IMG/VR virus record: IMGVR_UViG_3300049491_000350
Span: 1-64,000 of that record
Source of the DNA: a virus
DNA: 64,000 bases
Direction: 5' to 3' (one strand)
A program made the translations under genes and the position numbers. The notes beneath the pieces were generated by a model. The model did not search any database. It was not told where the DNA came from and saw nothing but the letters and a program-made list of their open reading frames with translations. The stretch's first letter is position 1, and each line of letters starts with the position of its first letter. Positions 651 through 63,262 of the stretch are shown piece by piece.

Positions 651-1796
651 ATGCTTACTAAAGAGACCCCATATTTCTCACATGACGCTAATGCCAGCCA
701 TGACCCTAAAATAGTCAGGGCAGAAAATAATTTTGGCGACATAGCGTACTGTTGGTTTTTCAAAACGCTGGAGCTTCTGCGGCAGGAAAGAAACTTAAAA
801 CTTTTACTTTCAGATATAGATATACTATACCCGAAAGTTAAATGCCCATCAGCCCAGATGTACTCCGCATTTATAAAAACATCAAACCTTTTTGATTTCA
901 ACGAAACCCACTTTTGGAGCAATAGCCTTATCGCAAGGGTAGGAAACGCTTTACTTTCATCATCAAAGAAAAGTAAAGCAGCCAATATGAGATGGGGCAA
1001 GTTTTATCTGGATAATGGAAACAATGAAAAAGCAATGGCATATTTTAGCCTTGCAGAAATATCCGATTCAAAACAACCAGACGTTCCTGCGCTACCACCA
1101 GCAAATCATAACCCACAGCAAAACAACGAAACAATATCGCCAGCGATTATCATATCAGAAAAACCCAAGACAGTACATGATATTATTTTACCTCTTGTTC
1201 CATTCCAGCTAACTCATAACGCAGAGCTATCTTGGAAAGCCTGCCTGTTCATGTGCAACAAATCATACGAAGAAATAAAAGCAATTCATGGAGAGTATGT
1301 TTCAGAAGAAATTTTTGAGAGCTACAAAAGATTTAATTCTATCATAGACAACCCAAACAATGAGCCAGACCTTAGACCCCTACGAATCTCAAACTTTCAA
1401 GTTGACCTTCAATCATTCGTAAAGCTATGCAAGCCATACGCAGATAGAGCTATCATTATAAGGGGAATGATTAAGATGCTGGGGTCTGGATTGAAGCCAG
1501 AGCATGTACTGTCTTTAAGGATACCTCAATTCATTGGATATATACTGGACGAAGGAAAAGAAAAGGGCAGCACTTCAACAGCAGGAAAATCGCAGCCAGA
1601 CAACGCAGCACCAGTATTAAAGGATGGATATTATTGGGCAAACAATAAAAAAATAATGACCATCAATATAGAAGATATGGAACAGTGCAGACAGTTAATA
1701 AAAATAAAGCACGACTTAGATTTATCTGATGAGGAAATAATCATGCAGCGCACAGCAAAAGGAGACCAGAATTTTACGTGGTGGCTTGAGCTATAA
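651..1796 (+). CDS. Phage replication initiator, DUF4373/Lin1244-like N-terminal domain
   Basis: YFSHDANASHDPKI...YCWFFKTLELL...FWSNSL..R...KAANMRW pattern; directly upstream of DnaB. Confidence 0.75.
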   Translation: MLTKETPYFSHDANASHDPKIVRAENNFGDIAYCWFFKTLELLRQERNLKLLLSDIDILYPKVKCPSAQMYSAFIKTSNLFDFNETHFWSNSLIARVGNALLSSSKKSKAANMRWGKFYLDNGNNEKAMAYFSLAEISDSKQPDVPALPPANHNPQQNNETISPAIIISEKPKTVHDIILPLVPFQLTHNAELSWKACLFMCNKSYEEIKAIHGEYVSEEIFESYKRFNSIIDNPNNEPDLRPLRISNFQVDLQSFVKLCKPYADRAIIIRGMIKMLGSGLKPEHVLSLRIPQFIGYILDEGKEKGSTSTAGKSQPDNAAPVLKDGYYWANNKKIMTINIEDMEQCRQLIKIKHDLDLSDEEIIMQRTAKGDQNFTWWLEL

Positions 1797-1839
1797 AATA
1801 TTTTACAATTGTTTTTTCAGAATAACCTAATCAAGTCCA

Positions 1840-3348
1840 ATGGCAAAAAAAGTATCAGAAACAGAAGGAAAAATAATGCCGCACTCTTACGAGATGGAAA
1901 GGAACGTATTGGGTGCGCTAATGGTTGATACTAAAACAATCAGCAGGGTAGCTGATATAATTTCAATTGATACATTTTACAACCCAGCACACCAGTTAAT
2001 ATACAAAGCAATATTCAATATATTTAAGAAGGGAGGTAAAATTGATTACCTTCTTGTATCCGATGAATTAAAAAAGATTAACAAACTTGAGGACGCAGGC
2101 GGAGAGGATTATATCAGGCAACTTACAGATGTAGCATCTATATCAAACTATTATTCATACGCACAGAAAATCGAGGAGAAGGCGATAGGTAGAAGGATTA
2201 TTGAACATTGCCATGCAGCCATTGCGTCTATATATGAAGGTGAGCAAGATGTAACGGCTGTGGCGCATGACCTAAATGACAACGTTTTCAAATCTCAAAT
2301 ATCATTAACAGCACAGAAGATAATTACACCAGATTATGTAGGCGACCTTTTGATTGACGAGATGATGTTTGGCATGACACATGAAGGCCTTGTGGGTGTG
2401 CCATGTGGAGTTAAACCAATTGATGATAAGACTGGCGGATGGCAGAACCAGCATGTAATAACTATTGGCGCACGTACCCGTCATGGTAAGTCTGCTATCG
2501 CAGCAGGGTATATGTACAATTCAGCTTTGATAAAGAACCCAGAGTACGGTAAAAGTCCAAATGAGAAGTGGAGTTTGTACCCTTCTGCATTCATGTCAAT
2601 GGAGATGCGTAATACAGAGGTGTTCTCAAGGCTGGTATCAATGGAAATCAAAAGAGTATTTAAGAGAAATGTTTCTTATAGTGCCATCTCAAAGGGAAAA
2701 CTTTCAGAGGAAGATGCAGACTTGGTAATCAAAGCTGTAAGGCAGCTTGCCCAAAGGGGTATATACATTGACGATAGCCCTGCGTTAACAACAAGTATCA
2801 TCAAGGCTAAGGTTATGAAAATGATAAATGAATATGGCATCAAGCAGGTATTCATTGATTACGTCCAGCTTGTTACAGAGGACAGGCAGACAAAGGAAAA
2901 CAGGGCGCAGCAAATATCTGGATGGTACACTGACTTTAAGAACCAAGCAAAACTGTTTAATATCCCTTACATTATCCTTTCCCAGATTGACAGGCAAACA
3001 GAGAAAGGCGGCACACCCAGACCACCTGCGCTTGCAGACCTTAAAGATTCTGGCGGCATCGAAGAAAAGTCAGACGTTGTTATGTTGCTATATAGGGCAG
3101 AGGTCAATGAGCATGAGCCAACAGATGAACATGGCAGGAGCTTGAAGGGAACAATAAATGTAAACATTGCGAAGCATAAGCAGGGCGGCACAGGAGAGTT
3201 TGTATTGCCATTCGATGTAGCAACAAACTCCTTTGGAGACTTTGAAGATGAACGGCCTTTTGTAAACCCCGTTGCGACCAGACCCAGCTTTAGCATAGGG
3301 CATTCCATTAACAACAACAGCTTAGGCTCTGACGACCAGCCATTTTAA
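1840..3348 (+). CDS. dnaB: Replicative DNA helicase
   Basis: PHSYEMERNVLGAL N-domain, Walker A GARTRHGKS, SMEM, FIDYVQL, LSQIDR, DLKDSGGIEEKSDVVMLLYR. Confidence 0.95.
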   Translation: MAKKVSETEGKIMPHSYEMERNVLGALMVDTKTISRVADIISIDTFYNPAHQLIYKAIFNIFKKGGKIDYLLVSDELKKINKLEDAGGEDYIRQLTDVASISNYYSYAQKIEEKAIGRRIIEHCHAAIASIYEGEQDVTAVAHDLNDNVFKSQISLTAQKIITPDYVGDLLIDEMMFGMTHEGLVGVPCGVKPIDDKTGGWQNQHVITIGARTRHGKSAIAAGYMYNSALIKNPEYGKSPNEKWSLYPSAFMSMEMRNTEVFSRLVSMEIKRVFKRNVSYSAISKGKLSEEDADLVIKAVRQLAQRGIYIDDSPALTTSIIKAKVMKMINEYGIKQVFIDYVQLVTEDRQTKENRAQQISGWYTDFKNQAKLFNIPYIILSQIDRQTEKGGTPRPPALADLKDSGGIEEKSDVVMLLYRAEVNEHEPTDEHGRSLKGTINVNIAKHKQGGTGEFVLPFDVATNSFGDFEDERPFVNPVATRPSFSIGHSINNNSLGSDDQPF

Positions 3349-3377
3349 ATAAAAATATTTTTTAAATATTTTTGAAG

Positions 3378-3385
3378 TATATTTG
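3378..3385 (+). promoter_or_regulatory. Bacteroidota-type -7 promoter element
   Basis: TATATTTG matches TAnnTTTG and is intergenic; no canonically spaced -33 element. Confidence 0.4.
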
Positions 3386-3389
3386 AATC

Positions 3390-3833
3390 TTGAATCTCAA
3401 TCAACTATATACACGAAAAAGCAGAGAGTATATTCTCACTCATCCTGTATGCGAAGCAAGGATATGTTGTAGGGGCGCAGCTTCCATAGAGGTTCATCAT
3501 AAGTCTGGTAGAACAGGCATCAATCTTGTCAGGCATTTCCTTGCAGTATGCAGGGGATGCCATGACTGGATTGGAAAGTATGTTACAGATGCGATAAGGC
3601 TTGGCTTTTCCTTTAAAAGGAATTTACAAATACCACTGGAACGTGTATTTGTTTTTACATTAAAATCAACATTCTCATATCAGGATAATAAGATAGGGCA
3701 TCAGGCCGATATGATTGACGTAATATCCTTAACATACGACCTCGCCTTACTTGACGCATGTAATGAATTTAAACGCAAGCATTCAAAATTCACTCATGTA
3801 TATTTTGAGGTTATAAAATACGAAATATTATAA
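3390..3833 (+). CDS. HNH endonuclease
   Basis: CEARICC...EVHH...LAVCRGCHDWI; TTG start. Confidence 0.75.
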   Translation: MNLNQLYTRKSREYILTHPVCEARICCRGAASIEVHHKSGRTGINLVRHFLAVCRGCHDWIGKYVTDAIRLGFSFKRNLQIPLERVFVFTLKSTFSYQDNKIGHQADMIDVISLTYDLALLDACNEFKRKHSKFTHVYFEVIKYEIL

Positions 3834-3835
3834 AC

Positions 3836-4120: not shown

Positions 4121-4158
4121 TTATAAAATATTTTACAATCACAAAAAAAACAAAATGT

Positions 4159-5313: not shown

Positions 5314-5328
5314 TCAAAACACTTTAGT

Positions 5329-6221: not shown

Positions 6222-7049
6222 ATGGGAGAGAACTCAAAAATAGAATGGTGTCATCATACTGACAATATCTGGGAAGGGTGCGACAAGGTACATGATGGAT
6301 GCACCAATTGTTATGCAGAAGCCAGAGCAATCAGATTCAAGTTTGATATATGGGGCGCAGACAAGCCGAGGAAGTTGATTAAAACAGGATTCACCAATCT
6401 GGCCAGACTTCAAAAAAAGGCAAGCGAACTTAATGAGATGCACCGGGTTTTTATAAATTCATTGAGTGATGTTTTTGAAAAGCCAAAGCCTTTGATTAGT
6501 TCAAGCAATGAACCGCTTGGCGTAAATACTGGCATACTAAGAGGGGAGTTATTTTCAAACATATCAATGGGCATGTACCCGAACCTCATGTTCCTGCTGC
6601 TAACAAAGCGTCCATCAAACATCTCTAAGTATATCCCGGAGAAATGGCTGGAAACTCCGCCAGCCAATGTAATGTTTGGTACATCTCCCTGCGACCAGAA
6701 AACATTCGATACCCTATGGTGGCAACTTGCCAGAGTGAACGGCAAGCGATTCCTTAGCATAGAGCCGCAGCTTGCGGAGATAATACTAAAAGCGTACTGC
6801 CCTTCCTGTGAGAAACTACTGGCAGGGTCTATGAGCCATCGTTGCGGCACATGCCATTCTGAAACTATCAGGCCAGACTGGATTATCAATGGCGGCGAAA
6901 GCGGAAAGAATAAAAGGCCGTTTGATTTATCGTGGGCATACACGTTACGTGATGCCTGCAAGACGCACAGCGTTCCGTTCTTCTTTAAACAGATTGACAA
7001 AGTGCAGGCGATACCTGATGATTTATTGATTCGTGAATTTTATAAATAA
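6222..7049 (+). CDS. DUF5131 (phage Gp37/Gp68) family protein
   Basis: SKIEWCHHT..NIWEGCDKVHDGCTNCYA, RVFINSLSDVF, LLLTKRP, RFLSIEP, DWIINGGESG, VPFFFKQ. Confidence 0.9.
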   Translation: MGENSKIEWCHHTDNIWEGCDKVHDGCTNCYAEARAIRFKFDIWGADKPRKLIKTGFTNLARLQKKASELNEMHRVFINSLSDVFEKPKPLISSSNEPLGVNTGILRGELFSNISMGMYPNLMFLLLTKRPSNISKYIPEKWLETPPANVMFGTSPCDQKTFDTLWWQLARVNGKRFLSIEPQLAEIILKAYCPSCEKLLAGSMSHRCGTCHSETIRPDWIINGGESGKNKRPFDLSWAYTLRDACKTHSVPFFFKQIDKVQAIPDDLLIREFYK

Positions 7050-7061
7050 AATATTTTAACA

Positions 7062-9445: not shown

Positions 9446-9678
9446 GCAAGCAACTAACTATACAGAGCGAAAAGTCAAAGTATGACAAAGCGATAGCTAC
9501 TTTTATCGTATTCATTTTAATCGCTGCTGCAATTGGCTTATTTGTAATACCTGCCATCTATTCAATCAACCAAAACGCATCATGGAGCATAGCCTGCATG
9601 GCGCTTTTCTTTTTTATTATCCTGATAATAGGTGTCATACTCGCCTGCCTGATAAGCAAGAGAATGAGAATGAAATAA
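9442..9678 (+). CDS. Small two-TM membrane protein
   Basis: Two long hydrophobic segments; ATGA overlap with upstream gene. Confidence 0.6.
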   Translation: MSKQLTIQSEKSKYDKAIATFIVFILIAAAIGLFVIPAIYSINQNASWSIACMALFFFIILIIGVILACLISKRMRMK

Positions 9679-9703
9679 AATATTTTACAACAAACAAACA
9701 AAC

Positions 9704-11897: not shown

Positions 11898-12089
11898 ATG
11901 GAATCCATAGTTAAAATATTTTACAAACTTAGCCCTACCATTATGGAGAAGATGGTGTTGCAGTTTGATGATGCGGTTAAGGAGGCCAACAAAAAAGAGA
12001 ATACAAGGGATATGCTTGACTTGGCGGAGGCTATCAGGTTTGTATTAATGAATGGCATCTGGGAAAGAATTTGTCAGGATATGCAATGA
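11898..12089 (+). CDS. Hypothetical protein (possibly frameshifted; see findings)
   Basis: 63 aa; an overlapping frame 12052-12174 continues it. Confidence 0.45.
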   Translation: MESIVKIFYKLSPTIMEKMVLQFDDAVKEANKKENTRDMLDLAEAIRFVLMNGIWERICQDMQ

Positions 12090-12202: not shown

Positions 12203-12985
12203 ATGTTTTTTGAACAGAAAGATATAGAAACCTTTAATCTTGACTACTTTTTCAACTCGGCGTATTCTAAATCCTCTGATGAACTCAAGAGGCTCATCCC
12301 TATTGAGTTGCAGCGTAAAATATCCTTGCATAAAAAAGACCCATCAAGGGGATTGAAGCCTATTGAAAAGGTTCAAATCCTTACTGTGTGTTTAGGGTAT
12401 CAGTTCTTTAATGTATTTGCTAAGGATGAAGGTGTTACCCCGGAGGTATTTTCTGCCATTTCAAAGGCACAGGCTGGCAAGATAACCAACAGTGAGGCAC
12501 TGAAAGCTCTGGATAAGGAAGATGTGTTTATTGTGGGTAGCGCAGTGCTGGCAAAGTATTTTAACTATGGGTCTCATATCCAGTGTTCAAAGATTCATAC
12601 CCTGATACAAGATTACAAAGTAACGAAGGGTATGCACGGCAGGGGAGGCAAGGGCAAGATGTCTGCGTTGCGTGGTATTGTTGAATTTGTTTTTGCCTAC
12701 AACAGGCGGATTGACCTGATACTGAAAAGGCGCAACCTGACCCCAAGCGATTTTAATTTCCTGACGTACATATACGATGGCGAACACACGGCGGCAGACT
12801 TCCATAGCAATGTTATGACAGGGTACGCAAAGGGTTCTATCCATCTAAGGAAAGCGGTTTACAAAATGGTCAAGAAAGGGCTGGTAGAGGTGAGGGGTCA
12901 GCAGAAGAAAAAGCAGTACAGGATAAGCCAGAATGGAACAACGACAGTGAATAGCATCATGGATGAAGTAATGCAACATATATAA
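12203..12985 (+). CDS. Protein with C-terminal MarR-like winged helix
   Basis: LTPSDFNFLTYI...LRKAVYKMVKKGLVEV...YRISQNG. Confidence 0.6.
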   Translation: MFFEQKDIETFNLDYFFNSAYSKSSDELKRLIPIELQRKISLHKKDPSRGLKPIEKVQILTVCLGYQFFNVFAKDEGVTPEVFSAISKAQAGKITNSEALKALDKEDVFIVGSAVLAKYFNYGSHIQCSKIHTLIQDYKVTKGMHGRGGKGKMSALRGIVEFVFAYNRRIDLILKRRNLTPSDFNFLTYIYDGEHTAADFHSNVMTGYAKGSIHLRKAVYKMVKKGLVEVRGQQKKKQYRISQNGTTTVNSIMDEVMQHI

Positions 12986-14010: not shown

Positions 14011-14244
14011 ATGCAACAAATACAAACTTCAACCATCATCAAGCTGGACTTAATAGATTCCATAAAGGTTCTGCTTGGCAGGTGCATCAAGGTTGACATC
14101 AAGACGGACATACATCAGGAGCAAGAGATTGGTCATTATAACGCTTCGGCAAATGTGTCTATCGAAAAGACAACAACCCACTTTATTAAGCAGGACAAAC
14201 CAAGATTCGGATGGGCTGAAAGAGGGGAATTATCTCAAAAGTAA
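14011..14244 (+). CDS. Hypothetical protein
   Basis: 77 aa; preceded by a duplicated 25-nt leader. Confidence 0.55.
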   Translation: MQQIQTSTIIKLDLIDSIKVLLGRCIKVDIKTDIHQEQEIGHYNASANVSIEKTTTHFIKQDKPRFGWAERGELSQK

Positions 14245-14258
14245 AATATTTTACACCC

Positions 14259-15809: not shown

Positions 15810-15819
15810 TAGAATAAAA

Positions 15820-16494: not shown

Positions 16495-16514
16495 AAGAAG
16501 TAAAATATTTTAAA

Positions 16515-18394: not shown

Positions 18395-18745
18395 ATGTCT
18401 AAGTTTAAAAAAGGAGACAAGGTAATTTGCGTTCACGACCATAATGACGTAAAGCAAGGCGATGTCCTTGAAGTGATAGTTCCTTCCACCAATTGCTGCA
18501 ATGGCATTATTTTCAAGGACAGGAATTACCACTACCCACAAGAATGCTTTGAATATTATAAAGAATCCGACAAGCCAAGCGGAGCTTTCCTTATTGACGA
18601 GCAGGGCATCATGGAAACCTTATTAGAAGTTGAACGTAAAATATTTTACAATCAGGTTCAAGGAGTGATACCAGTTGATATTGTAAAGTCGCAACTGTTT
18701 AAGATAATTAAGGCTTTAGGTTTACAAGAAAAAATGATACCCTAA
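18395..18745 (+). CDS. Hypothetical protein
   Basis: MSKFKKGDKVIC SH3-like phage N-terminus. Confidence 0.6.
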   Translation: MSKFKKGDKVICVHDHNDVKQGDVLEVIVPSTNCCNGIIFKDRNYHYPQECFEYYKESDKPSGAFLIDEQGIMETLLEVERKIFYNQVQGVIPVDIVKSQLFKIIKALGLQEKMIP

Positions 18746-20766: not shown

Positions 20767-20797
20767 AATATTTTAATAATCATAAAAAACAAAAACA

Positions 20798-21862: not shown

Positions 21863-21901
21863 GTTTAAAATATTTTATATTTTCGTACCAAACTTTTTTA
21901 T

Positions 21902-25311: not shown

Positions 25312-25415
25312 GTTATTATAAATGAAATCCTTTATAAATTTTATTGTACGAATATAGTCATTTGGGTTTTATTATTTTATTTTGGCTTCATAAAATATTT
25401 TAAAACGGAGAAACT

Positions 25416-28083: not shown

Positions 28084-28126
28084 AATATTTTATTAATTAA
28101 CGGAGAAATACAAAAGTTTAAAAATT

Positions 28127-29734: not shown

Positions 29735-29756
29735 ACTTTAAAATATTTTACAACTG

Positions 29757-33732: not shown

Positions 33733-33756
33733 ACACTTTTAAAATATTTTACAATT

Positions 33757-35254: not shown

Positions 35255-35272
35255 AAAATAAAATATTTTATA

Positions 35273-42651: not shown

Positions 42652-43096
42652 AAGGGTTTATGACAGGACACAAATATGGGTCGCACTGCATACGATATAC
42701 AGTGGCGATACCGACTTTGTTCAGAACCTGCATAAAACCAAAAGCAAAAGCGCATACGGCGCAGCTAATGACAGCCTTAATAATATCAGCACAGACACGG
42801 AGTTTTATCTTGCTTATTCTGGCAGGCAGGTGGCTGGCTTTTTTGCTATAAACAAAACGTACCCCATAATGATGTACGTGATAGAAGGGTTTCATGTAAT
42901 ACCAGAATGCAGGGATGCAAAGTTCCTTAGCCAGTATTGGGCAGACGCAAAATTATTGATGGAAGGGAAGCCTACTGGCGTATGTATTTACAGCAAGAAT
43001 GAGACAGCGATTAAACATTTGAAAAAAAACGGGTTTGAAGATATAAGAGAAATGGTGCATGATGGAATTTCTCACGTACTTTTGATTCATTCATAA
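42641..43096 (+). CDS. GNAT-fold protein
   Basis: VAGFF...FHVIPECR...IYSKNETAIKHLKKNGFE. Confidence 0.65.
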   Translation: MEFKRVYDRTQIWVALHTIYSGDTDFVQNLHKTKSKSAYGAANDSLNNISTDTEFYLAYSGRQVAGFFAINKTYPIMMYVIEGFHVIPECRDAKFLSQYWADAKLLMEGKPTGVCIYSKNETAIKHLKKNGFEDIREMVHDGISHVLLIHS

Positions 43097-43107
43097 AATA
43101 TTTTACA

Positions 43108-45424: not shown

Positions 45425-45448
45425 TAAAACTGCATTATAAAATATTTT

Positions 45449-51400: not shown

Positions 51401-54400
51401 TATTATAATAAACTTACTGATGCAAGGAAAGCCCAGAGAGAAGCAAAGCGTATAGTTAAGAGCGGCGTGGTTACACAGAATGACATAGCTGTTATTAAAG
51501 AACTAACTGGCATGAATGTGTCTGACGTAACTGATTTGGATAAGTACCTAAGCATACTGAAAGACTTTAACGACAGCAGGGTTGTAAAGACTTCGCCTAT
51601 TCGCCAGTACACTAACGATGCTATATCTGATTTCATTACAACAGAAAAAGACGCACAGCTTGGCAATTACAGGCAGGAGATAAAAGACGAAATGGATGAC
51701 CTTAAATCATCTCTCGATTATACTGTTGCATCTCAAACAGTTTCCATTACTGCGCCAGATGGAGTTGATATTGAAAAAGAAATAAACGGCATTATCGCTT
51801 CCAATGAAATGTCTTTTGGTGAAAAGAGAAAAGCGATTGGCGAAATTGACAATGCTGTTGCTGGCCTGTCATCAAAAATAAGTGAGACCCTTGACGGCAT
51901 CAATACAGATGCCATTGTATTTGACGATATAAGGAACTCTGCTGACGATACAACCTCTCCACAACACGAAGGGCTGATTACTGCGCTTGAAGATGTGATG
52001 GCTGCACAGCAGGCTATAATTGATTTAGACGACACTTCCCTGACAGATGAACAACGGTATAAATTAAAAGTATTGAAAGATGTGGTGCTTGACGGCATGG
52101 ATGCAAATGAGCTTCGTTTGTTTTCCAATGTTCTTAATAATTACATTGACAACAATGACGATAGCGGATTTGATTATATCGAATCAATTTATCTGGCACA
52201 GGAGAGCGTAAGGGAAATGACAGACTACATGCTGGATAACCATATTGTTTTAAAGGACAACGCATACGATGGAAAGGTGCTGGGTAAAACATTTGAATCG
52301 CTGTCAAGCGTGGAGCAGGTGTTCCTTCACATAGCAAACTCTGGTGCAGTGTTCACATCAAAGTTATTTAATTGGGCTGGCGTAAACAAGTTTCAACAGC
52401 AGGCGCAAAAAGCGTACAATCATTATCGTGAACAATTTCAAACACCACTTGAGGAGATATTGAACAGGAACAAAAAGGAAATGGATATACATGCCAATAC
52501 CCGGATGCAGGTGTTCAGCATATTAAACCAGTCTATTCAAAATTCCAGCTTATTGGAAAAGAATAAAGAGTTGCTGAAAAGGATTGATGAAATGTATTCT
52601 GATATTGGCATAAAGCGTCAGGGCAATAATCAGGAAAAGGCCGAAGCTGAAATAGAATACGCACAAGTTGAATCCCTTCGCTTGCTTGTTGCAGACAGGG
52701 CAGGTATTGATTGGGCAGATGCAGACCAGCGCAAGCTGCTTACTAAAGAAATCTTTGATAATTCAACTGGCGAATATTTAGACCCAGCAGAGAAAGAGGT
52801 GTACGCACTGGTTCAGAAATTCTATGGCGATACCAAGCAGACATTCCAGCAGACAATGAACGGATTACTGAATGAGAAGTTTGAGGCTTGGGATAATTAC
52901 AGCCCTGATTCATTCAGGAATCTTAATGGCGGCGTAGTTGCAGTGGATGAGAACTCATGGAAGGGTTCAGCATTTGCTGCTCAACAGAACGGGTACACGC
53001 TTACTGGCGGAGCAACAAACCAGCGTGTCAAGGGAAACAGGGTGCGGCTTGCAAAGGTTGGCGATAACCAGAGGGTGTTCAGGATGGATTATCTTGGCCT
53101 CAATGGTAAGAACATAATGTCTATGCTGCATGACGTGTACACTGCTAAAGAGCGCATGGTTATGTATAACGTATTGAAGTCAGAGGACTTCATCAAAAAC
53201 GTTGGAACATCGAACCATGAGACGATGAAGAAAACAATTACTCGCCACGTAAACAATGAGGTTGGATTACAGAAGCTGGAACAGGATGCGGTTAGTAAGA
53301 ATATAAGGGCTGTTGCAAATGAAGTTGGGCAACTTGCCACCAAGCGTCAGCTATATTCATTCTCTGCATTCGTTAAGCAAAGCATATCCGCATACTCAAA
53401 TACGGCAGTGTACATGGCATTGAACGGCAGCATGGATTCTTTTCTTGAAGGTGTACGTGCTGCGGCAAATGACTTGGATGCAAATGAATTGCTGCATGGC
53501 CAGCAGGTAGGAAGGAGGGGAGAGACAAAGGCAGGCCTCAATATCTTTAATGATTTCAATAAAGAGAAAGAGCTTGCAGCGCAGGATAAAGATAAATCTG
53601 TTTTCAAAAAATACTACGACAAGGTGGTGCATGGTGAAAACAAATACACTGGCGAAAGGGCAAAGCGTATGGGGTACTTCATTGAGAAGGGCGATGTGGT
53701 TGCCGCCAGAGGTTCTTGGCTTGCCTATTACGCACAACACCTTGTTAAGAATGGCGTGGTTACAAACGCTTCTGATATTGATTGGGCTAACGAGAACCAG
53801 AACCCTAATCAGGAGGCTGTGTCATACGCACAGATAATGACCAGTAATGCAATGAACGTAAATGCAAACTCATCACGCAGCGAATTTCAGCAAAGCACTT
53901 CTGGTGGTCTGGTGTTTGTTAAGGCGATGCTTGCTGCATTCAGTTCATTCCAATTTAATAAAAGCGTCAGCCTGTTCAACAACTTGCGCTCCCTATCTAA
54001 AGGAAGCTATGCCACTATTCTTGATTCTAATGGGCAGGAGCAAATCATTAAGGCATCGGAAGAACAGCGCAAAGATGAAATCAATACATCTTACAAAACA
54101 TTACTGGCATCGCTATCCGAAGAAATGATTTTCAATGCAGCGAAGCTGGGCATAGGGTACACGCTGTATAAAACAATTCCATTCCTGCTTGGCTCACTGT
54201 TTGGAGGAGACGATGATGAAACAAAAAAGAGAAAGAAAATAATCAGCCAAGAAGGGGAGCAATCTTATTGGGATAACGCAGGCATTAAATGGTGGACAAA
54301 TGTATTCAATGGGTTTGCGTTATCAATAATACCAGACATCGCACAGAAGCAATTGAACTCCGGGGTTAACGAAATCGCTAAGGCTTCTGGCGGAGATAAA

Positions 54401-54961
54401 ATATTTTACGAACCGAAACAAAAAAGCGGACAGTCATCACTAATGGGTTCATTTCAGGCAGCAGCACAAGATGTGCCAGAGGACGTATCGAGGCTGTACG
54501 AATATTTATTTAAGCACACAGCCAGCGATGGAAGCCCTGTTACTGTGTCAAGCAAAGACAAAGGGATGGCATTGCTGGGCTTATTGAGCGATGGTGCAGG
54601 CTTTACTGGATATGGAGACGCAGACCTTAACAGGGTGCTACATGCCCACATCAAACAGGCGCAGGTAGATAACGATGCAAATTTCAAGAAGCCTTATACT
54701 ATCCTTATGAACGACCCGGACAAGGGGCGTGTGGTAACAGTGAACAAAGAGAAGATAGAATTGACTGATGACCAGACCGATTTCTTTAATGATAAAAGGA
54801 AGGAGTATTTTGACAAGATGCCTAAGACTGTCATAGACGCAATGGATAAAAACGAGACCGTTAAGCAACGAATGAATACAGCCGCCACTACGTTTGCGAA
54901 AGCTGCAACCATGCTCAAGTATGGGGAGCAGATACGGGAAGCCATAAAGAAAGCGAAGTAA
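45449..54961 (+). CDS. Giant ejection/polyvalent protein with zincin-like motifs
   Basis: 3170 aa; duplicated DFMKS.GVEGLP N-terminus, Gly/Ala segment, FRGVHDFFGH domain (about 49220), AHELIH (about 49862), long coiled coils. Confidence 0.75.
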   Translation: MDEKLQSIYDFMKSQGVEGLPEFQQFKTDFAANPETQRSTLDFMKSKGVEGLPDIGQFSNDIGVKKKDGGTDLSNGDSMEGTQKDTATSGSEESGSNTFDFYKAIDPMGFMRGGLELDYDGVKIPVTSFDIPQPPDSRPYPERLGQFDTGEYNKAFVGEIQNYLTDDKYIGSPERQKAQEYVQNIRLKNAYRNDAFSFSDVSMAEAQRFADRYGVELGTELNGDYFQKVKALKDKVNADTKEQYTEHRVQGRSDLPYEVFNDNGYKNDADNNTINNLFERLSSKMADRGTADDAKDVVVQYADQRTIFEKGMDYASPVYGAASSAVNNALLFGSKKIDANFITGLNQRKLADPVEYARIAKQIANGEPVASNDYFRLTNVGLSINNSDNLEGLSTGKQTIEDFISNHRGIMQQSSDLLLNTKDVLKSAIADELGSRLDEKAEKESLLGNNVTGSYMYSDEEINAALPAALQSIGVNKDDPRVVDAINSIKGDEGWMVGMNGVKKGGLVRELFKGAAQPFRGIAAWGDSFGKPLSQEYNEAKNQQLSTYTEQRPESMKGTVLNTLSDAVYGLGQFASQAGLAYAGGEIVGGIGALAGGVGEAGAAAATETAAARGALSGLDAAAESIAADAVSAGSKIGNYLLRNREAISTFATGYLQSYDSNLKTTLQMTEDDASAKLGAQFLAAMEGASELILPDVKLGREIIGGFKKEAIPGLLKNISENILKKGVDKNAWAKVGEYAGKRLLSAAATTGQEIAEEEITQLANYATNVVLNPKQAGNRDLGDELFKTAVSTAVSMSIPAFLRSGGGNHNTGLDNNKAALVLASANLTTIQDYINTAVSKGMMNPDEASAKMQIVNTAHSIASQMPANKNDGTKMNITERAEYLYSRTKEAALADAITKTTDDVLKERYKKEIAEEQALRKGLIEKTETRFDGKYLSDKERNIFVNKQSELARIDTRLAENPDDKTLVRQRNSLRSDIYRIRDGNYFGAVNNISRRMGVQYNGMERDEYNRVVEPAANNAGRFSTFNIKDGDEIVLPNNEKMTVVSADENRIVMDDGSGKNDLIFDGKSEFENVFIPTFFSGNKQFAQLNPTIHAQAVQFRKKLLNEPNADVHNIAVNYVRNNGIANDIDTRPVTSLNEKESADRAKRFEQVVHAPKEKATIDSYEALKKETLAQWNAITDAGYNLELWSGKGEPYSSSKAMTDDVRENKHLWILPTLNEFGSNEDFDASENPLLEKTGMVASGMELTYNDVFRGVHDFFGHAHIGNQFGAIGEENAWRSHSQMYSPLARKAMTMETRMQNSWVNFSGENVAALNLFKEAATLEKQSKDKSGNIIDRDKYEQSIALKKEAQLKFKFADQKVAVASDEDVQMRGAYDNVQEGLDQPSSITQYKKGETVSLADLQNEWPVTNEGMVDMFQWGKSQDVQIGFRAMRQTDGIAFYNPLSDEIYFNVSHPEFKSLTVADTQEFLAHELIHKAAHYSFENNPELAGEFNKDAGKVIAFLKQQDITKLDATTQKYISFMLEDNADPQELITYGMTNPYIAQWFASLEYNASEQGQKSGSVWQWMKEKILRFVSNIVKGKSVLDETARLLDKYVKFGLQTRMSEREQLHSQILEQLNNSTVPDTMKIGIRSAPAEDVINFIYEQATNTTNADGQLYSGREALEQQFGKELVDRVVDYKQREISAPLAANKPLEGKPERLDNESAFDYAKRVREWYNKARQDKELDSKDRRKAQVESIEERDYLAHIRDGVALLKINAGISIEDFNKQLNIPADNLETYIASLQQLTEDKEDAAANKNAKAVLDALRQQYPERVTMTEVELLRKQYNAYNNGYRKAMNTARKNLSKATKEFNENYKLLKAYKNAERQQMAADLKGKSAAERNELIKKKNEERRQKVLALKDKMEQAKKDYEQKVADIKDRNKYFRDKVADILTDLYKSGALKGVTFTEQELLQLAATAGNVYTNKTFKKLQQVIDKLINKADYYNKLTDARKAQREAKRIVKSGVVTQNDIAVIKELTGMNVSDVTDLDKYLSILKDFNDSRVVKTSPIRQYTNDAISDFITTEKDAQLGNYRQEIKDEMDDLKSSLDYTVASQTVSITAPDGVDIEKEINGIIASNEMSFGEKRKAIGEIDNAVAGLSSKISETLDGINTDAIVFDDIRNSADDTTSPQHEGLITALEDVMAAQQAIIDLDDTSLTDEQRYKLKVLKDVVLDGMDANELRLFSNVLNNYIDNNDDSGFDYIESIYLAQESVREMTDYMLDNHIVLKDNAYDGKVLGKTFESLSSVEQVFLHIANSGAVFTSKLFNWAGVNKFQQQAQKAYNHYREQFQTPLEEILNRNKKEMDIHANTRMQVFSILNQSIQNSSLLEKNKELLKRIDEMYSDIGIKRQGNNQEKAEAEIEYAQVESLRLLVADRAGIDWADADQRKLLTKEIFDNSTGEYLDPAEKEVYALVQKFYGDTKQTFQQTMNGLLNEKFEAWDNYSPDSFRNLNGGVVAVDENSWKGSAFAAQQNGYTLTGGATNQRVKGNRVRLAKVGDNQRVFRMDYLGLNGKNIMSMLHDVYTAKERMVMYNVLKSEDFIKNVGTSNHETMKKTITRHVNNEVGLQKLEQDAVSKNIRAVANEVGQLATKRQLYSFSAFVKQSISAYSNTAVYMALNGSMDSFLEGVRAAANDLDANELLHGQQVGRRGETKAGLNIFNDFNKEKELAAQDKDKSVFKKYYDKVVHGENKYTGERAKRMGYFIEKGDVVAARGSWLAYYAQHLVKNGVVTNASDIDWANENQNPNQEAVSYAQIMTSNAMNVNANSSRSEFQQSTSGGLVFVKAMLAAFSSFQFNKSVSLFNNLRSLSKGSYATILDSNGQEQIIKASEEQRKDEINTSYKTLLASLSEEMIFNAAKLGIGYTLYKTIPFLLGSLFGGDDDETKKRKKIISQEGEQSYWDNAGIKWWTNVFNGFALSIIPDIAQKQLNSGVNEIAKASGGDKIFYEPKQKSGQSSLMGSFQAAAQDVPEDVSRLYEYLFKHTASDGSPVTVSSKDKGMALLGLLSDGAGFTGYGDADLNRVLHAHIKQAQVDNDANFKKPYTILMNDPDKGRVVTVNKEKIELTDDQTDFFNDKRKEYFDKMPKTVIDAMDKNETVKQRMNTAATTFAKAATMLKYGEQIREAIKKAK

Positions 54962-54991
54962 ATTATAAATGAAATCATTTATAATTCCGAG

Positions 54992-55024: not shown

Positions 55025-55051
55025 TTTTGCATTAAAATAAAATATTTTATT

Positions 55052-55863: not shown

Positions 55864-57030
55864 ATGAAACAGATTCTAATTGCAACACTTATTTTAACAA
55901 GCGTATTTTCTTTTGGGCAAACCCCAACGGCTACACTAAATGATGCAAAGACTTATATCAATGCTAATATAAAAAGCAATGGGCTTAACAGTATCACTGG
56001 CGCAAAGCTCAATACAGCTATGACTAAGTTGAGCAACGCTGTAATGGGTACTGTTGATTCTCTTGGTACGGAGGTTAAAGCTGTTGGCATAGACGTTAGC
56101 TCTATATCCTCAACTGTTAGTACGCATACGGGGCAGATTTCAACTATCAACGGACAAATCTCTACAATCAATTCTTCAATAGCATCACTTATTCCACTGC
56201 CATCGCAGTCCGGGCAGAGCGGAAAGTACCTTTCAACTGATGGAAGTAATTTGAGTTGGCAGGCTGCAAGTGGCGGCGTTCCATACACAGGAGCGACAGG
56301 CGATGTGAATTTAGGCAGCAATAATTTTACTGCCGCAATTGGAACTTTTAATAATTTCATCAACACTTCCGGCGGCATTATCGTAGGAAATAACTTTAAT
56401 ATAATCCCTGACGGAGGAGGGCTTATGAGATGGGCAACTGGCAGTGGTGCTATAGTTCAAAATTTTAGTGGGGTTGGCTTCCCTACAAAAACAGTTACAT
56501 GGCAAAACCAAAGCGGTACGGTTGCGGTAGTAGGAACAACAGTAAATACATTCCTTAATACTCCTACCAGTGCGAATCTATTAGCTGCGCTTACGACAAA
56601 GACAGGAACAGGCAACGCTGTGTTCGGTACGCTTCCAACTCTTGCAGGCTTCAATACTCCGCAGGCAGGAACAACGGCAACTGATGGATGGAATTTGGGT
56701 ACAGGGCAAGCAATATTTAGAAGCACCGCTACAGCTATTACTATTACAGGCTCAAAACTGATGTTTGATTTTACAAATACAACGGCAGGTACTACTGGCA
56801 ATCAAACAATTAATAAGCCAAGCGGCAGTGTAAATATTGCTACTGGCGGTTCTTCTATAACTGTTACTAATAGCTTAGTTAATGCTGCATCAAAAGTGTT
56901 CGCAACTATTGCAACCACAGGCATGACAATTTCGGTGGCAAGCATTTCTAAAAATTCAGGTTCTTTTACAGTTACCCTGACAGGGGTAACGAGTTCGGAG
57001 ACTATCATTGATTTTTTTGTCATCAATTAA
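55864..57030 (+). CDS. Tail-fibre-like protein with signal peptide
   Basis: MKQILIATLILTSVFSFG|Q; coiled coil; LPSQSGQSGKYLSTDG, VPYTGATGDVNLG, FLNTPTSANLLAALT..TGTG fibre motifs. Confidence 0.7.
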   Translation: MKQILIATLILTSVFSFGQTPTATLNDAKTYINANIKSNGLNSITGAKLNTAMTKLSNAVMGTVDSLGTEVKAVGIDVSSISSTVSTHTGQISTINGQISTINSSIASLIPLPSQSGQSGKYLSTDGSNLSWQAASGGVPYTGATGDVNLGSNNFTAAIGTFNNFINTSGGIIVGNNFNIIPDGGGLMRWATGSGAIVQNFSGVGFPTKTVTWQNQSGTVAVVGTTVNTFLNTPTSANLLAALTTKTGTGNAVFGTLPTLAGFNTPQAGTTATDGWNLGTGQAIFRSTATAITITGSKLMFDFTNTTAGTTGNQTINKPSGSVNIATGGSSITVTNSLVNAASKVFATIATTGMTISVASISKNSGSFTVTLTGVTSSETIIDFFVIN

Positions 57031-57058
57031 AATATTTTAAAATTTAAACAAACGCAAA

Positions 57059-57778: not shown

Positions 57779-59170
57779 ATGAAAAAGTTAAAATGTTTTA
57801 TTTCAGCAGTGCTGCTCTTATTGAGCAGCACCTGCTTTTCACAAACTCCAACGGAGCTTATTGATTCGATGGAACGGCAGGTGAATAACGACATCGTATT
57901 TAATACCACTGGTGCAATTACATCTGCCAAAGTAAACCTTGCCTTTGCAAATGTCGCAAGGGCATTAAGGGCTTTAAGGGATACCAGTAACGGCGTAACC
58001 TATCCTATTGGCGTGGATGAAAACGGCGACCTGTTTATATATCAAAGCTGGGTTGATAGCCTCTTTGCTGATGCGAACCCGGCAACTAACACAGGCATTG
58101 TACAGTTCTCTGGTTTGTATCTTGGCAACGATACTTTGTACGCTAATATGGCCTCGCCATTGATATACAAAATTAATGGCAGCACATTCATCCGTTCAAC
58201 AGAATGGAACACGGTTGTAACCGGGGCATCCCCAAGCCATTACAGGACAGATATTATTTACATCAATGCGCTTGAGGAAATAGTTTACGAGGCTGGCGTA
58301 GAGAATACTGATGCTGGGCTTGCGGTTGCGCCTACACCGCCATCTGATGTCGTAGTGCTTGGTTACATGAGTGTGTTTGAGGAATCGCTGCTTGTTATTC
58401 CTGTTCCCCCATTGTACCAGCGAAATGGAGTTTTGTATGTTGATGGCAATGCTAATGTTGTAACAGACAGTACAGATTTTACTTATCAAAACACCTCTAC
58501 ATTTTCTGACTTAGAGATAGGAAAGAAATTTGCTTTTTCAAATCAGACAAGGTTTGGGTTGCATGGCGGAAGGGCAAAGATAATTGGCTCTGCATTTGGG
58601 ATGCAGATAAATGTTGGTAGCGGAGAGAGTGGTGTGCCAGACCCATCGAAGCATATTGTATTTGGCAACAGGGGTACAGTCTTTGGTGAATTTGGTTGCT
58701 CTGTTAACGCAGCACCATTTTATAACTGGTTCAAGTTAACAGATACTGCCACCGTTTTTGCTTTAAAGAAAAAAGATGTTGTTACAGACTTGGCAACAGC
58801 AGATGCGGTGTGGCACAATGATACTTTAAAGTCAAGGCCAATAACCTATCACAAATGGGTAGGGCTTGTATCGCAGACAGGTACTGCTGACCCGGTAGCT
58901 ATCACTTTAGAGAATACATTCCCGGCAGGCTTTGAGCCGCAATGGCATAGGGTAGGGCTGGGCAATTACGATGCAACAAACCTGTCAGGAGTAGCAGCTA
59001 AGAGGGTGGTATTTGTATCGCCGCTTGAATCAGGCAATCGTGTGTCTGTTTACAATCAGGTAAACAATAAGGTAATATTCTCTACGTGGACAGAGGCAAG
59101 CAGCTACGCAACAACGTGGTCTGACGGGCTGCTTACCAATTGGAGCGTAACCATAATACAATACTTCTAA
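57779..59170 (+). CDS. Tail-fibre-like protein with signal peptide
   Basis: MKKLKCFISAVLLLLSSTCFS|Q; N-domain similar to 55864; RTDIIY...P.PP; SQTGTADP...LENT...W.RVGLGNY C-domain. Confidence 0.7.
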   Translation: MKKLKCFISAVLLLLSSTCFSQTPTELIDSMERQVNNDIVFNTTGAITSAKVNLAFANVARALRALRDTSNGVTYPIGVDENGDLFIYQSWVDSLFADANPATNTGIVQFSGLYLGNDTLYANMASPLIYKINGSTFIRSTEWNTVVTGASPSHYRTDIIYINALEEIVYEAGVENTDAGLAVAPTPPSDVVVLGYMSVFEESLLVIPVPPLYQRNGVLYVDGNANVVTDSTDFTYQNTSTFSDLEIGKKFAFSNQTRFGLHGGRAKIIGSAFGMQINVGSGESGVPDPSKHIVFGNRGTVFGEFGCSVNAAPFYNWFKLTDTATVFALKKKDVVTDLATADAVWHNDTLKSRPITYHKWVGLVSQTGTADPVAITLENTFPAGFEPQWHRVGLGNYDATNLSGVAAKRVVFVSPLESGNRVSVYNQVNNKVIFSTWTEASSYATTWSDGLLTNWSVTIIQYF

Positions 59171-59205
59171 AATATTTTATAATCAAACAAAAAAGGAGAA
59201 TTTTT

Positions 59206-62889: not shown

Positions 62890-62909
62890 ACCAAAAAAAA
62901 CAAAGACTT

Positions 62910-63179
62910 ATGAACCGCTTTAGTTTGCAATTGCGTGATTGGCTGAAAGGTTTAATCATCGCCGTAGGTACACCAGTGTTGTATTTAATGCAAGAGTTGA
63001 TTCCAAACTGGAATCTTACTCCAATCGAAAAGGCTGCGCTGTCAGCATTTGTAACTTACATGCTGAAAAACCTTTTCACTGATGATGTAAAGGCTGCAAA
63101 GAAAACACTGGTTAAGGCAAAGGAAATCGAGAAAAAGGCAGAGGAAAAGCAGCAGCAGAAAAATGATTACCCAGAGTAA
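62910..63179 (+). CDS. Holin-like membrane protein
   Basis: DWLKGLIIAV...AALSAFVTYMLKNLFT; two hydrophobic segments and a charged tail. Confidence 0.55.
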   Translation: MNRFSLQLRDWLKGLIIAVGTPVLYLMQELIPNWNLTPIEKAALSAFVTYMLKNLFTDDVKAAKKTLVKAKEIEKKAEEKQQQKNDYPE

Positions 63180-63262
63180 CAACCTGACACTGGCTCTCCG
63201 ATGAGAAGCCCAACAAAGAGTAAATTATTAAAGACCAATGAACAACATTTGGAAAATATTTT

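Follow-up and report, generated by a model that had tools for sequence, protein, structure and literature searches.

A 12-bp palindrome repeated at gene borders of an uncultured phage, a putative site for a dimeric DNA-binding protein

Proteins of the ParB/Noc/KorB family bind as dimers to perfect palindromes of 13-16 bp, and in mycobacteriophage L5 comparable near-invariant sites are found in short gaps, where they overlap start and stop codons. In lytic-looking phages, iterated invariant palindromes had been recorded by 2015 at the latest, when a 17-bp palindrome, TGTTCGGNNNCCGAACA, present in 34 copies and explicitly not tied to gene starts, was described in the Cluster O mycobacteriophages (Corndog and relatives) and contrasted with stoperators (PMC4351075). 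On plasmids, the KorB/OB system provides global transcriptional control (PMC11790492). We describe here an independent and much more deeply conserved example of an iterated phage palindrome, in an uncultured lineage.

The window, that is, the whole stretch of DNA analysed, comprises 64,000 nucleotides (positions 1 to 64,000 of IMG/VR record IMGVR_UViG_3300049491_000350) of the 82.75-kb genome of an uncultured phage. The original prediction, made from the letters alone, was that a 12-bp palindrome punctuates gene junctions across this window. The observation is confirmed, and all 26 core start coordinates are exact. The core, AAAATATTTT, occurs 26 times in the window, where dinucleotide shuffles give 0.51 expected copies (shuffle maximum, 3), and 34 times in the whole genome. 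The full 12-mer, TAAAATATTTTA, accounts for 22 of the 26 window copies (0.01 expected). Genome-wide, 28 exact 12-mers were counted and only seven copies with one mismatch, two-mismatch copies being at background level. The halves hardly ever occur alone, nearly every half being part of a full palindrome. The enrichment also held when the Markov background was trained on junction DNA, with the motif masked or unmasked: the 8,317 nt of junction DNA (66.6% A+T) contain 26 copies versus 0.11-0.66 expected at orders 0 to 3, hence at most 0.7. In coding DNA, 8 copies were found versus 0.5 expected. The copies present in the window are the following.

Copy 1, 1794..1805: TAA is the stop of 651-1796; core 35 nt from the ATG (1840) of a DnaB-like helicase
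Copy 2, 3352..3361: core only, A/T flanks, 3 nt past the stop of 1840-3348; followed by two degenerate copies with an 11-bp period, then about 470 nt without a called gene
Copy 3, 4124..4135: 4 nt past the stop of 3836-4120; ATG 4159 is 24 nt downstream
Copy 4, 7047..7058: TAA is the stop of 6222-7049; core 4 nt from ATG 7062
Copy 5, 9676..9687: TAA is the stop of ORF 9442-9678; core 17 nt from ATG 9704
Copy 6, 11912..11923: 17 nt past the stop of ATPase gene 10474-11895, in weak ORF 11898-12089; neighbour copies at 2236 and 2330 bp
Copy 7, 14242..14253: TAA is the stop of 14011-14244; core 6 nt from ATG 14259
Copy 8, 16501..16512: 7 nt past the stop of 15781-16494; core 3 nt from the ATG of ORF 16515-16850
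Copy 9, 18637..18648: in ORF 18395-18745; terminase ATG (18748) 100 nt downstream
Copy 10, 20764..20775: TAA is the terminase stop; core 23 nt from ATG 20798
Copy 11, 21866..21877: 9 nt past a strong terminator hairpin (stem end 21858, -21.5 kcal/mol); ATG 21902 is 25 nt downstream
Copy 12, 25391..25402: in the sole internal divergent gap, 14 nt from ATG 25416; leftward gene start 25311 is 79 nt away
Copy 13, 25859..25868: core only, A at -1, in 25416-26612; next copy 2223 bp away
Copy 14, 28081..28092: TAA is the stop of 26647-28083; core 35 nt from ATG 28127
Copy 15, 29739..29750: 10 nt past a strong terminator (stem end 29730, -20.3 kcal/mol); ATG 29757 is 7 nt downstream
Copy 16, 33740..33751: 8 nt past the stop of 32953-33732; ATG 33757 is 6 nt downstream
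Copy 17, 35259..35270: 5 nt past the stop of 34601-35254; core 3 nt from the ATG of ORF 35273-35455
Copy 18, 40951..40962: in the 1569-aa gene 36477-41186; next copy 2143 bp downstream
Copy 19, 43094..43105: TAA is the stop of 42641-43096; core 3 nt from ATG 43108
Copy 20, 45438..45449: final A is the A of the ATG (45449) of a 3170-aa gene
Copy 21, 47610..47619: core only, G at -1, in the 3170-aa gene, 2171 bp past copy 20
Copy 22, 54397..54408: in the 3170-aa gene; core 35 nt from an in-frame ATG (54443)
Copy 23, 55038..55049: 18 nt past a terminator (stem end 55021, -15 kcal/mol); ATG 55052 is 3 nt downstream
Copy 24, 57028..57039: TAA is the stop of the upstream ORF (end 57030); core 20 nt from ATG 57059
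Copy 25, 59168..59179: TAA is the stop of the upstream ORF (end 59170); core 27 nt from ATG 59206
Copy 26, 63253..63262: core only, G at -1; ATG 63263 directly next

By our gene calls, 20 of these copies are at junctions, the number first estimated by eye, and 6 within ORFs. The palindrome fills minimal intergenic gaps, with its TAA serving as the upstream stop, and it ends 0-36 nt before the next ATG, the core-to-ATG distance being 0-7 nt in about 13 cases. The ORF list bears out the nine stop-codon overlaps (ends 1796, 7049, 9678, 14244, 20766, 28083, 43096, 57030 and 59170) and the two directly abutting ATGs (45449 and 63263). It is also correct that no single temporal class is involved, as replication, structural and lysis genes are all preceded by the palindrome. 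An extension with CAA, described as frequent, was found in approximately 9-10 of the 26 copies and is limited to this genome, the flanks being symmetric in relatives. A separate operator-like triple repeat is located before the first gene (284-362).

The same TAAAATATTTTA was found in two relatives sharing about 40% terminase identity, with 14 copies in G003 and 17 in G005 (reversed-pattern controls, 0-1), as well as in three shorter metagenome contigs (L117, L124 and L129). In both relatives the junction anatomy is that of the present phage, and in this phage and its deep relatives the palindrome stands at the 5' border of approximately one third of genes or gene blocks. In a terminase tree, lineages with the motif form a paraphyletic group, suggesting that the motif is ancestral and was lost once. 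The palindrome thus looks ancient within this lineage, which probably consists of Bacteroidota phages.

Conservation extends beyond the 12-mer. In G003, a purine is found at -1 and a pyrimidine at +13, with TTT...AAA extensions, and in G005, T is absent at -1 and A at +13. The effective site is R-TAAAATATTTTA-Y, about 14 bp with symmetric R/Y flanks. As RNA, the palindrome does not fold (0 kcal/mol). Upstream, positions -30 to -2 each carry at most 0.26 bit, and nothing is conserved at -35 or -33. Symmetric flanks, unfolded RNA and the lack of a -35/-33 partner together point to a dimeric protein reading double-stranded DNA. Symmetry alone would leave room for an asymmetric promoter, because an A/T-only 12-mer is palindromic by chance in about 1 case in 64.

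Several features place the palindrome at transcription borders. On the plus arm, three of the four strongest junction terminators have a copy 9-18 nt downstream, and one more case of this arrangement is present in G005. The terminase gene is preceded by a copy in G003 (26 nt) and G005 (23 nt) also, and the divergent junction, with a copy 12-16 nt before the rightward gene, is kept in all three complete motif-bearing genomes. On the minus arm, ten units have a pseudoknot leader. A hammerhead ribozyme precedes seven of them, the exact palindrome precedes one, and a variant, TAAAATATTAAA, precedes another. The last A of the exact palindrome coincides in the alignment with the point of hammerhead cleavage, each lying 11 nt before ACAGG. 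The degenerate junction copies at 5650 and 80753 (minus arm) are the variant TAAAATATTAAA, which retains the half lying upstream with respect to transcription. As copies follow terminators, occupy the divergent junction and, in one leader unit, replace a hammerhead at exactly its point of cleavage, the site probably functions at the beginnings of transcripts.

Three options had been offered in the original prediction: a site for a dimeric DNA-binding protein, an mRNA processing mark, or a translation termination/re-initiation element. The first fits best, in view of the exact palindrome, the halves hardly ever found alone, the symmetric flanks and the unfolded RNA, and also of the copies right behind strong intrinsic terminators and in the divergent gap, which neither a processing nor a re-initiation mark would need. 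We therefore tentatively favor R-TAAAATATTTTA-Y as a putative high-specificity double-stranded DNA site of a symmetric, dimeric protein acting at gene-block borders, at a confidence somewhat short of even. The bound protein would act on transcription there. It may, together with the TAAAAT half, define a compact phage-specific start site, with transcripts beginning at the last A or near it, or RNA polymerase may be gated by it, with the site as an operator or roadblock. Some observations fit less easily. With starts at the sites, about 13 genes would receive leaders of 8 nt or less and the eight copies inside ORFs would be odd; without transcript starts at the sites, the link with terminators is only marginally significant. 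Moreover, one strong terminator (stem end 17901) adjoins a gene without the motif.

Starts at the sites would also be expected if the palindrome were a true promoter which, like T4 late promoters, is read by RNA polymerase itself, with a host sigma or an undetected phage sigma-like factor, a possibility that we hold to be unlikely. TAAAAT would then serve as the -10 box and ATTTT as an A/T-rich discriminator, with transcription starting at the last A; palindromy would be incidental to an A/T-only box. Such a promoter would account for copies following terminators, filling the divergent gap and lying directly 5' of genes, for the alignment with the hammerhead cleavage point, and for the half kept in TAAAATATTAAA at 5650 and 80753. 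In one-mismatch variants, A2 and T6 are kept and T1 is variable, as a promoter would also allow. It accounts poorly for the conservation, in three deep lineages, of a perfect 12-bp palindrome flanked symmetrically, and being palindromic it would fire in the antisense direction as well. Leaders of 0-8 nt would be common, and some copies are intragenic. In addition to the missing -35/-33 element, a sigma-70 scan does not single out the sites, and the Bacteroidota pattern TTTG-N17-21-TAnnTTTG gave five matches, none of them at a palindrome. No sigma or RNA polymerase family was matched in Pfam, and the DxDGD motif is absent from the giant proteins. A T4-type late promoter class fits poorly, no sigma-like factor having been found and the box preceding helicase, terminase, virion and lysis-region genes alike.

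Returning to a dimeric reader, three ORFs of the window had been named as candidates, and none stood up well. No counterpart of 441-644 or 7557-7838 exists in the motif-carrying relatives. The 12203-12985 protein is conserved in G003 and G005, but it is also present in the motif-free G001 and G004, and its putative recognition helix is not conserved. The best candidate is the phage's own ParB/Noc/KorB-family helix-turn-helix (HTH) protein, a conserved host protein being the main alternative.

12203..12985, plus strand: weak candidate reader, 260 aa, winged-helix-like (MarR/TrmB-like) C-terminus, weak match
74264-75127 of the genome (outside the window), minus strand: ParB-family HTH protein, Pfam HTH_ParB at 6.8e-9, above cut-off

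Profile comparison with the PDB matches the ParB-family protein to ParB, Spo0J, Noc and KorB chains (3e-12 to 4e-5), and GxRR and ENxxR-type boxes are seen in the alignment, so that N-terminal CTPase-type boxes accompany the HTH. Its gene is present in 3 of 3 complete motif genomes and 0 of 3 motif-free ones, a co-occurrence that amounts to one split in the phylogeny. Upstream of the gene, at 166-204 nt, there are three motif copies, and four fall within about 560 bp nearby, whereas the ParB genes of G003 and G005 are without a nearby site cluster. Despite the identical site, the recognition helix, which follows G(I/M)S, is not conserved (SRMHVDN, NEMQIGL and STMMVSL in the three genomes). The only invariant stretch is the segment after it, I(K/S)xTAAVKL. 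The differing helices weigh against a ParB reader, as does the fact that the co-occurrence, counted over three versus three genomes, reflects one phylogenetic event.

With the same protein, the sites could serve as parS/OB-like loading sites tiling the genome for a ParB/KorB-family clamp, which we judge improbable. Spreading from these sites, the clamp would silence, compact or protect the DNA, and junctions would simply be where a 12-mer fits. CTPase-type boxes with an HTH, a palindrome of the size and symmetry typical of the family and the four copies near the gene are in keeping with a clamp, and Cluster O mycobacteriophages likewise pair 34 palindromes with a ParB-like gene. Among neighbour spacings, 10 of 33 fall within 2127-2377 bp (P = 0.0015-0.0045, for a regularity noticed post hoc). 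An intragenic copy takes part in 7 of the 10, as if such copies filled gaps. The ~2.2-kb preference is, however, marginal in G003 and absent in G005, and the helix is not conserved. No ParA/CbiA-type partner was matched in Pfam among 65 proteins scanned, the structural genes being scanned with PHROGs only. Neither a temperate phage encoding a ParB-like protein nor G006, an IMG/VR virus contig that also encodes one, has an iterated palindrome. Phage ParB-like proteins have other roles as well, such as activating T-dioxygenases (PMC13229309). A bolder version, to which we give still less weight, is that the genome is tiled both at gaps and at ~2.2 kb, so that its own CTP-dependent ParB/KorB-type sliding clamp coats the whole chromosome. 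Such a coat would time transcription or shield the DNA, and the sole purpose of intragenic copies would be a dense tiling. If so, the same logic could explain the Cluster O palindromes.

It is very unlikely that the palindrome is an RNA-level signal, either an endoribonuclease cleavage mark that separates cistrons as the hammerheads do, but by means of a protein, or an A/U-rich element for ribosome loading or re-initiation. The palindrome does take the place of the hammerhead in two leader units and is 0-7 nt before ATG in about 13 cases, and AU|AUU within it resembles the preference of RNase E. Yet an RNA signal need not be a DNA palindrome, the RNA is unstructured and the symmetric flanks favor double-stranded DNA. 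Little upstream RNA would arrive after strong terminators or in the divergent gap, and the spacing to the ATG is variable (0 to 36 nt or more), sometimes with SD-like boxes between. Least probable of all are stoperator-like silencing sites, at which a repressor of a temperate or carrier-state phage would block elongation at many junctions: near-invariant sites in short gaps overlapping stop and start codons, and the triple repeat at 284-362, would suit them, but stoperators have an asymmetric, oriented sequence, in contrast to the symmetry of these sites (perfect in the core, and seen in the flanks in G003 and G005), and neither ParA nor, by Pfam, any integrase or immunity repressor family was found, most small proteins being without any family.

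The anatomy of the sites narrows the options, as they are tied to gene starts and terminators and are interchangeable in position with a self-cleaving ribozyme; the co-occurrence with a ParB-family protein and the ~2.2-kb spacing in one genome narrow them further. If the reader were a ParB/KorB-like clamp, long-range clamp-based gene control would be extended from plasmids to viruses. If the site were a promoter, it would represent a compact 12-bp class in hosts whose phage transcription signals are almost unknown. Either way, the exact 12-mer is a practical marker of operon borders in these metagenomic genomes.

Among known systems, the start-associated sequences of Cluster K mycobacteriophages are also short, conserved and a few bases upstream of many starts, but they are asymmetric, include the ribosome-binding site and always lie equally far from the start codon. 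A short, A/T-only, nearly invariant box immediately upstream of many genes, without a -35 element, is also seen in T4 late promoters (TATAAATA) and comparable single-box phage promoters. Unlike the present sites, T4 late promoters are non-palindromic, serve late genes only and depend on gp55, gp33 and the sliding clamp, of which we found none in this phage. Cluster A stoperators (L5 gp71) likewise number tens of copies in short gaps genome-wide, often overlapping stop or start codons, but they are asymmetric, oriented with transcription and bound by a monomeric immunity repressor in temperate phages. The RK2 KorB operator (OB) and Noc NBS sites (PMC11790492) come nearer, with a ParB-family CTPase/HTH protein encoded by the replicon and a perfect palindrome of 13-14 bp present on it in many copies, mostly in promoter or intergenic DNA. 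The palindrome described here is similarly perfect and multi-copy (28 exact 12-mers, 34 cores, ~14 bp with flanks). In contrast with KorB OB, site density is about twice as high, binding is only a candidate activity, no ParA/IncC or KorA-like partner was found, and the recognition helix is not conserved among orthologues sharing one site. The closest precedent is the Cluster O palindrome, an analogue rather than a homologue, the sequences being unrelated. Both systems have about 34 near-invariant dyad-symmetric copies (more than 30 invariant here), many intergenic and about one third in or near ORFs; in both a dimeric protein is predicted, a ParB-like protein is encoded, and integrase and parAB are lacking, in our phage as judged by Pfam. 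The Cluster O site is G+C-rich with a 3-bp spacer, whereas ours is an uninterrupted A/T-only 12-mer, from phages of a different host phylum and conserved across much deeper divergence. Unlike in Cluster O, the copies described here abut start codons, supply stop codons and follow terminators.

The palindrome is a real, robust and conserved feature of this phage, whose genome (G000) is a single contig of 82,750 bp, the window being its first 64 kb. The 26 positions reported for the core AAAATATTTT in the window were all exact, against 0.51 copies expected and a maximum of 3 in dinucleotide-preserving shuffles, and 22 of the 26 extend to the full 12-mer TAAAATATTTTA (0.01 expected). Genome-wide, the totals are 34 cores and 28 full 12-mers. 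The placement given by the original prediction also held: the nine stop-codon overlaps and the two directly abutting ATGs match the ORF table, and the approximately 20 copies said to lie at gene junctions are 20 of the 26 by our own crude gene calls (94 genes, 92.7% coding). Junction DNA was defined as every gap extended by 12 nt at either end, a total of 8,317 nt with 66.6% A+T. It contains 26 copies, whereas Markov models of order 0 to 3 trained on it, with the motif masked or unmasked, predict 0.11 to 0.66, so that the enrichment survives an A/T-rich intergenic background. Coding DNA is enriched as well, with 8 copies versus 0.5 expected. The site is sharply defined, since only 7 one-mismatch copies (0.85 expected) accompany the 28 exact 12-mers and two-mismatch copies are at background (21 versus 15). 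That the terminal 1.8 kb and 4.4 kb of the genome lack the palindrome is not significant at such a copy density.

No close relative was found among phage records (megablast, 20 kb query), and a single-protein terminase scan of viral contigs gave no match. The closest terminase relatives are 50-69% identical. A terminase profile yielded the five whole IMG/VR genomes used for comparison, with terminases 35-42% identical (G001 to G005), as well as 24 metagenome loci. Exact 12-mers number 14 in G003 (100 kb) and 17 in G005 (98 kb), for 0-1 in the reversed control, and zero in G001, G002 and G004. The copies of G003 and G005 repeat the anatomy seen in G000, overlapping stop codons and having an ATG at a distance of 2-30 nt. 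Among the metagenome loci, L117, L124 and L129 also carry the motif, and in L122 a single exact copy is accompanied by a variant with one mismatch, found at an orthologous position. In the terminase tree, the motif-bearing lineages are paraphyletic (G000, a clade of L122, L117 and L129, and a clade of L003, L005 and L124), and 11 members without the motif form a well-supported clade. Such paraphyly implies that the motif would be ancestral in the group and was probably lost once.

In all three complete motif-bearing genomes, the terminase gene is preceded by a palindrome (at 100, 26 and 23 nt), and gene 25416-26612 or its orthologue by another, at 12-16 nt, in a conserved divergent junction with a leftward 90-aa gene 79-95 nt off on the other side. 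Near its start, gene 25416-26612 contains an 18-bp coding repeat of about nine copies, encoding PDGEEK-like units (25488-25666). Because the 12-mer is identical among phages whose best-conserved proteins are 35-50% identical, its putative reader would have to be very slow to change, and must be encoded either by the host or, under constraint, by the phage. No occurrence of the exact 12-mer was found in the phage literature, nor any Bacteroidota-phage promoter motif of this kind.

In the usual case, the intergenic spacer is mostly made up of the motif. Eleven of the 34 G000 copies provide, with their TAA, the stop codon of the preceding gene, and the next ATG is 0-36 nt from the core, at 7 nt or less in about 13 cases. 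Upstream, no conserved element was detected, with at most 0.26 bit at every position from -30 to -2. Downstream, the G000 flank is biased to A-C-A-A. The flanks of the relatives are symmetric: in G003 a purine at -1 and a pyrimidine at +13 are present in 13 of 13 copies, with TTT...AAA further out, and in G005 T is never found at -1, nor A at +13. Such symmetry suggests that the unit is a symmetric site of at least 14 bp, the 14-mer form being RTAAAATATTTTAY. A directional ACAA extension was rejected as specific to G000, where it is best explained by A-rich leaders. One half of the palindrome is almost never found without the other. The half-site TATTTTAC, tried as a directional element in the motif-free relatives, was found before one orthologous gene, yet showed no genome-wide enrichment and was discarded.

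The gene map of G000 has two convergent arms, one rightward over 1-65,548 and the other leftward, starting at the right end and reaching 65,584; the palindrome is found on both. Annotation is sparse: a DnaB-like helicase, a terminase, DnaG-type primase, PNK phosphatase, PAPS-reductase-like, Lar and MazG-like domains, a DUF5131 protein, an ABC/AAA_15-type ATPase and a Lin1244-type replication-initiator-like protein. Since neither an RNA polymerase nor a sigma factor was detected among the proteins scanned (nor were integrase or ParA families), the phage presumably uses the host RNA polymerase. A crAss-like virion RNA polymerase was rejected as reader, as no giant protein contains DxDGD. Relatives come from soil and freshwater, and a distant terminase match is present in an Owenweeksia MAG, which would fit Bacteroidota as the host group; a species-genome scan gave no match, and hence no host clue.

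Several other features were noted along the genome. An exact 127-nt inverted terminal repeat, odd, G+C-rich and CTG/CAG-like, is found at its ends (window 1-127 and genome 82624-82750). The repeat of G004 is also exactly 127 nt and that of G001 is 11,478 nt, both being ITR genomes according to IMG/VR; the 127-nt length suggests an assembler k-mer effect at the edge of a longer true repeat, or a fold-back artefact. A 27-bp unit, with the palindrome TATGCAnnTGCATA in each copy, is repeated three times in tandem at 284-362, immediately before the first gene (441-644, 67 aa), an arrangement that looks like the classical triple operator of an early promoter. The helicase gene is followed by some 480 nt without a convincing gene (3349-3835), at whose start the palindrome core is succeeded by two degenerate versions of itself, with a period of 11 bp (AAATATTTTTG x3.2); this stretch is a candidate replication origin or non-coding RNA. 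A small inverted repeat, TTATAAATGAAATC(C/A)TTTATAA, occurs twice, in the divergent gap (25314-25338) and right after the gene of a 3170-aa protein (54962-54985), each time upstream of a palindrome copy. Within that same gene, 35 nt past the intragenic palindrome that starts at 54398, an in-frame ATG at 54443 could initiate a C-terminal product of its own, 172 aa long (54443-54961).

The reading we place first, tentatively and at slightly less than an even chance, takes the palindrome as the DNA target of a symmetric protein that would act at the 5' borders of transcription units. On the plus arm of G000, a palindrome copy comes within 9-18 nt after three of the four strongest terminators at junctions:

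Terminators preceding a palindrome copy (-15 to -21.5 kcal/mol)
21858, plus arm, stem end of terminator
29730, plus arm, stem end of terminator
55021, plus arm, stem end of terminator

A palindrome copy also opens the rightward block that comes next after the terminator at 24439 and a pair of reversed genes, and G005 provides one further case of terminator, motif and genes in succession. A strong terminator at 17901 adjoins a gene without the motif. A terminator followed by a promoter is a classical layout; the terminator-palindrome order reproduces it, with only marginal significance.

On the minus strand, ten leader units ending in CTATAACAG are found at genome 77256-82478 (13256-18478 of the right-arm locus L081). 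Seven of them are preceded by a hammerhead, with cleavage after GTC, 11 nt before ACAGG. In the unit at 78350, an exact palindrome takes the place of the ribozyme, and the distance from its last A to ACAGG is also 11 nt; the unit at 80734 has the variant TAAAATATTAAA in front, and the remaining one is the first unit of the arm. The last A being in register with the hammerhead cleavage site, the palindrome sits where an RNA 5' end is made. The variant TAAAATATTAAA is present at junctions 5650 and 80753 (minus arm), and in both the half that is upstream in the direction of transcription is kept, a small hint that TAAAAT may act as a -10-like element.

The terminator layout, the hammerhead register and the retained upstream half would all be accounted for if the palindrome were a bare promoter, one of the two main rival readings. 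We nevertheless find this doubtful, as a pure start site is at odds with the eight copies inside ORFs, themselves enriched, would leave about 13 leaders of 8 nt or less, and would fire in both directions. Moreover, the sites match neither the results of a sigma-70 scan nor the Bacteroidota -33/-7 pattern, and host-type promoters at the palindrome were rejected.

The distances between copies are a hint that the palindrome may work on DNA, and in a distance-dependent manner. In G000, 10 of 33 spacings between neighbours lie within 2127-2377 bp, a preference noticed post hoc (P = 0.0015 for uniform placement and 0.0045 when junction-restricted, for the maximum over all 250-bp bands), and seven of these ten involve an intragenic copy, as if filling gaps. 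In G003, a distance of 4.3-4.5 kb is weakly preferred (P about 0.06), and G005 has no preferred distance.

Candidate readers were sought by comparing six complete genomes, three motif-bearing and three motif-free. Five proteins are common to the former and absent from the latter:

Proteins restricted to the motif-bearing genomes
651-1796, replication-initiator-like protein
8951-9445, OB-fold SSB-like protein
10474-11895, ABC-type ATPase
45449-54961, 3170-aa protein
genome 74264-75127, minus strand, 287-aa ParB-family protein

The SSB-like and ATPase genes form a cassette with a winged-helix-like one (12203-12985), in an order kept in G003 and G005, and these first two genes are absent from motif-free G001, G002 and G004. 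The SSB-like protein was rejected as reader, its OB fold indicating a single-strand DNA-binding protein. For two of the readers suggested by the original prediction, 441-644 and 7557-7838, neither G003 nor G005 has an orthologue. The third, 12203-12985, has a weak winged-helix-like C-terminus; it is also encoded by genomes that lack the motif, and the helix predicted to recognise DNA is variable.

The ParB-family protein matches HTH_ParB at 6.8e-9, and the profiles of ParB, Spo0J, Noc and KorB structures, with GxRR and ENxxR-type boxes visible in the alignment. Members of this family bind as dimers to perfect palindromes of 13-16 bp, and KorB is a global repressor with 12 sites across plasmid RK2 (PMC11790492). 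The gene has three motif copies 166-204 nt upstream of it, at distances of 16 and 22 bp from one another, and a fourth some 500 bp beyond them. The second main rival reading, in which the genome is tiled with loading sites for a ParB-type clamp, is improbable in our view. Several points also count against the protein as the reader. Its putative base-reading helix differs among the three orthologues, no site cluster is found near those of G003 and G005, and co-occurrence with the motif represents one evolutionary event. G005 also has a separate array at one end (genome 97733-98040), of about ten 15-bp palindromes TTAATGTNACATTAA, mostly at 21-bp spacing, which has no counterpart in G000 and looks more like a centromere or origin, iteron-like or centromere-like; it was counted against the ParB-family reader. 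Phage ParB-like proteins may have other jobs (PMC13229309). A rule that a ParB-like gene implies an iterated palindrome was abandoned, as none is present in Pseudomonas phage PPpW-3 or in the IMG/VR virus contig G006. A conserved host protein is a serious alternative as reader. Reading at the RNA level is less likely, and an RNA hairpin or hairpin promoter was rejected, the transcribed motif being unstructured (0 kcal/mol).

Among known systems, stoperators of Cluster A phages have a distribution like that of the palindrome but are asymmetric and oriented, and a stoperator-like reading is also less likely. T4 late promoters share a single A/T box without a -35 element; however, they are not symmetric and require dedicated factors, which were not found in G000. 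The closest precedent is the 17-bp palindrome TGTTCGGNNNCCGAACA of Cluster O mycobacteriophages, of which Corndog has 34 invariant copies, many intergenic; its authors predicted that a dimer reads it and assigned it no function, and a ParB-like protein is encoded in those genomes too (PMC4351075). The G000 palindrome differs from it in being unrelated in sequence, A/T-only and without spacer, in its tight link to gene starts and stop codons, in its association with terminators and its positional equivalence to a ribozyme, and in its conservation across a much deeper divergence. The kind of feature is thus already known, yet unexplained, and the G000 palindrome is a distinct case of it.
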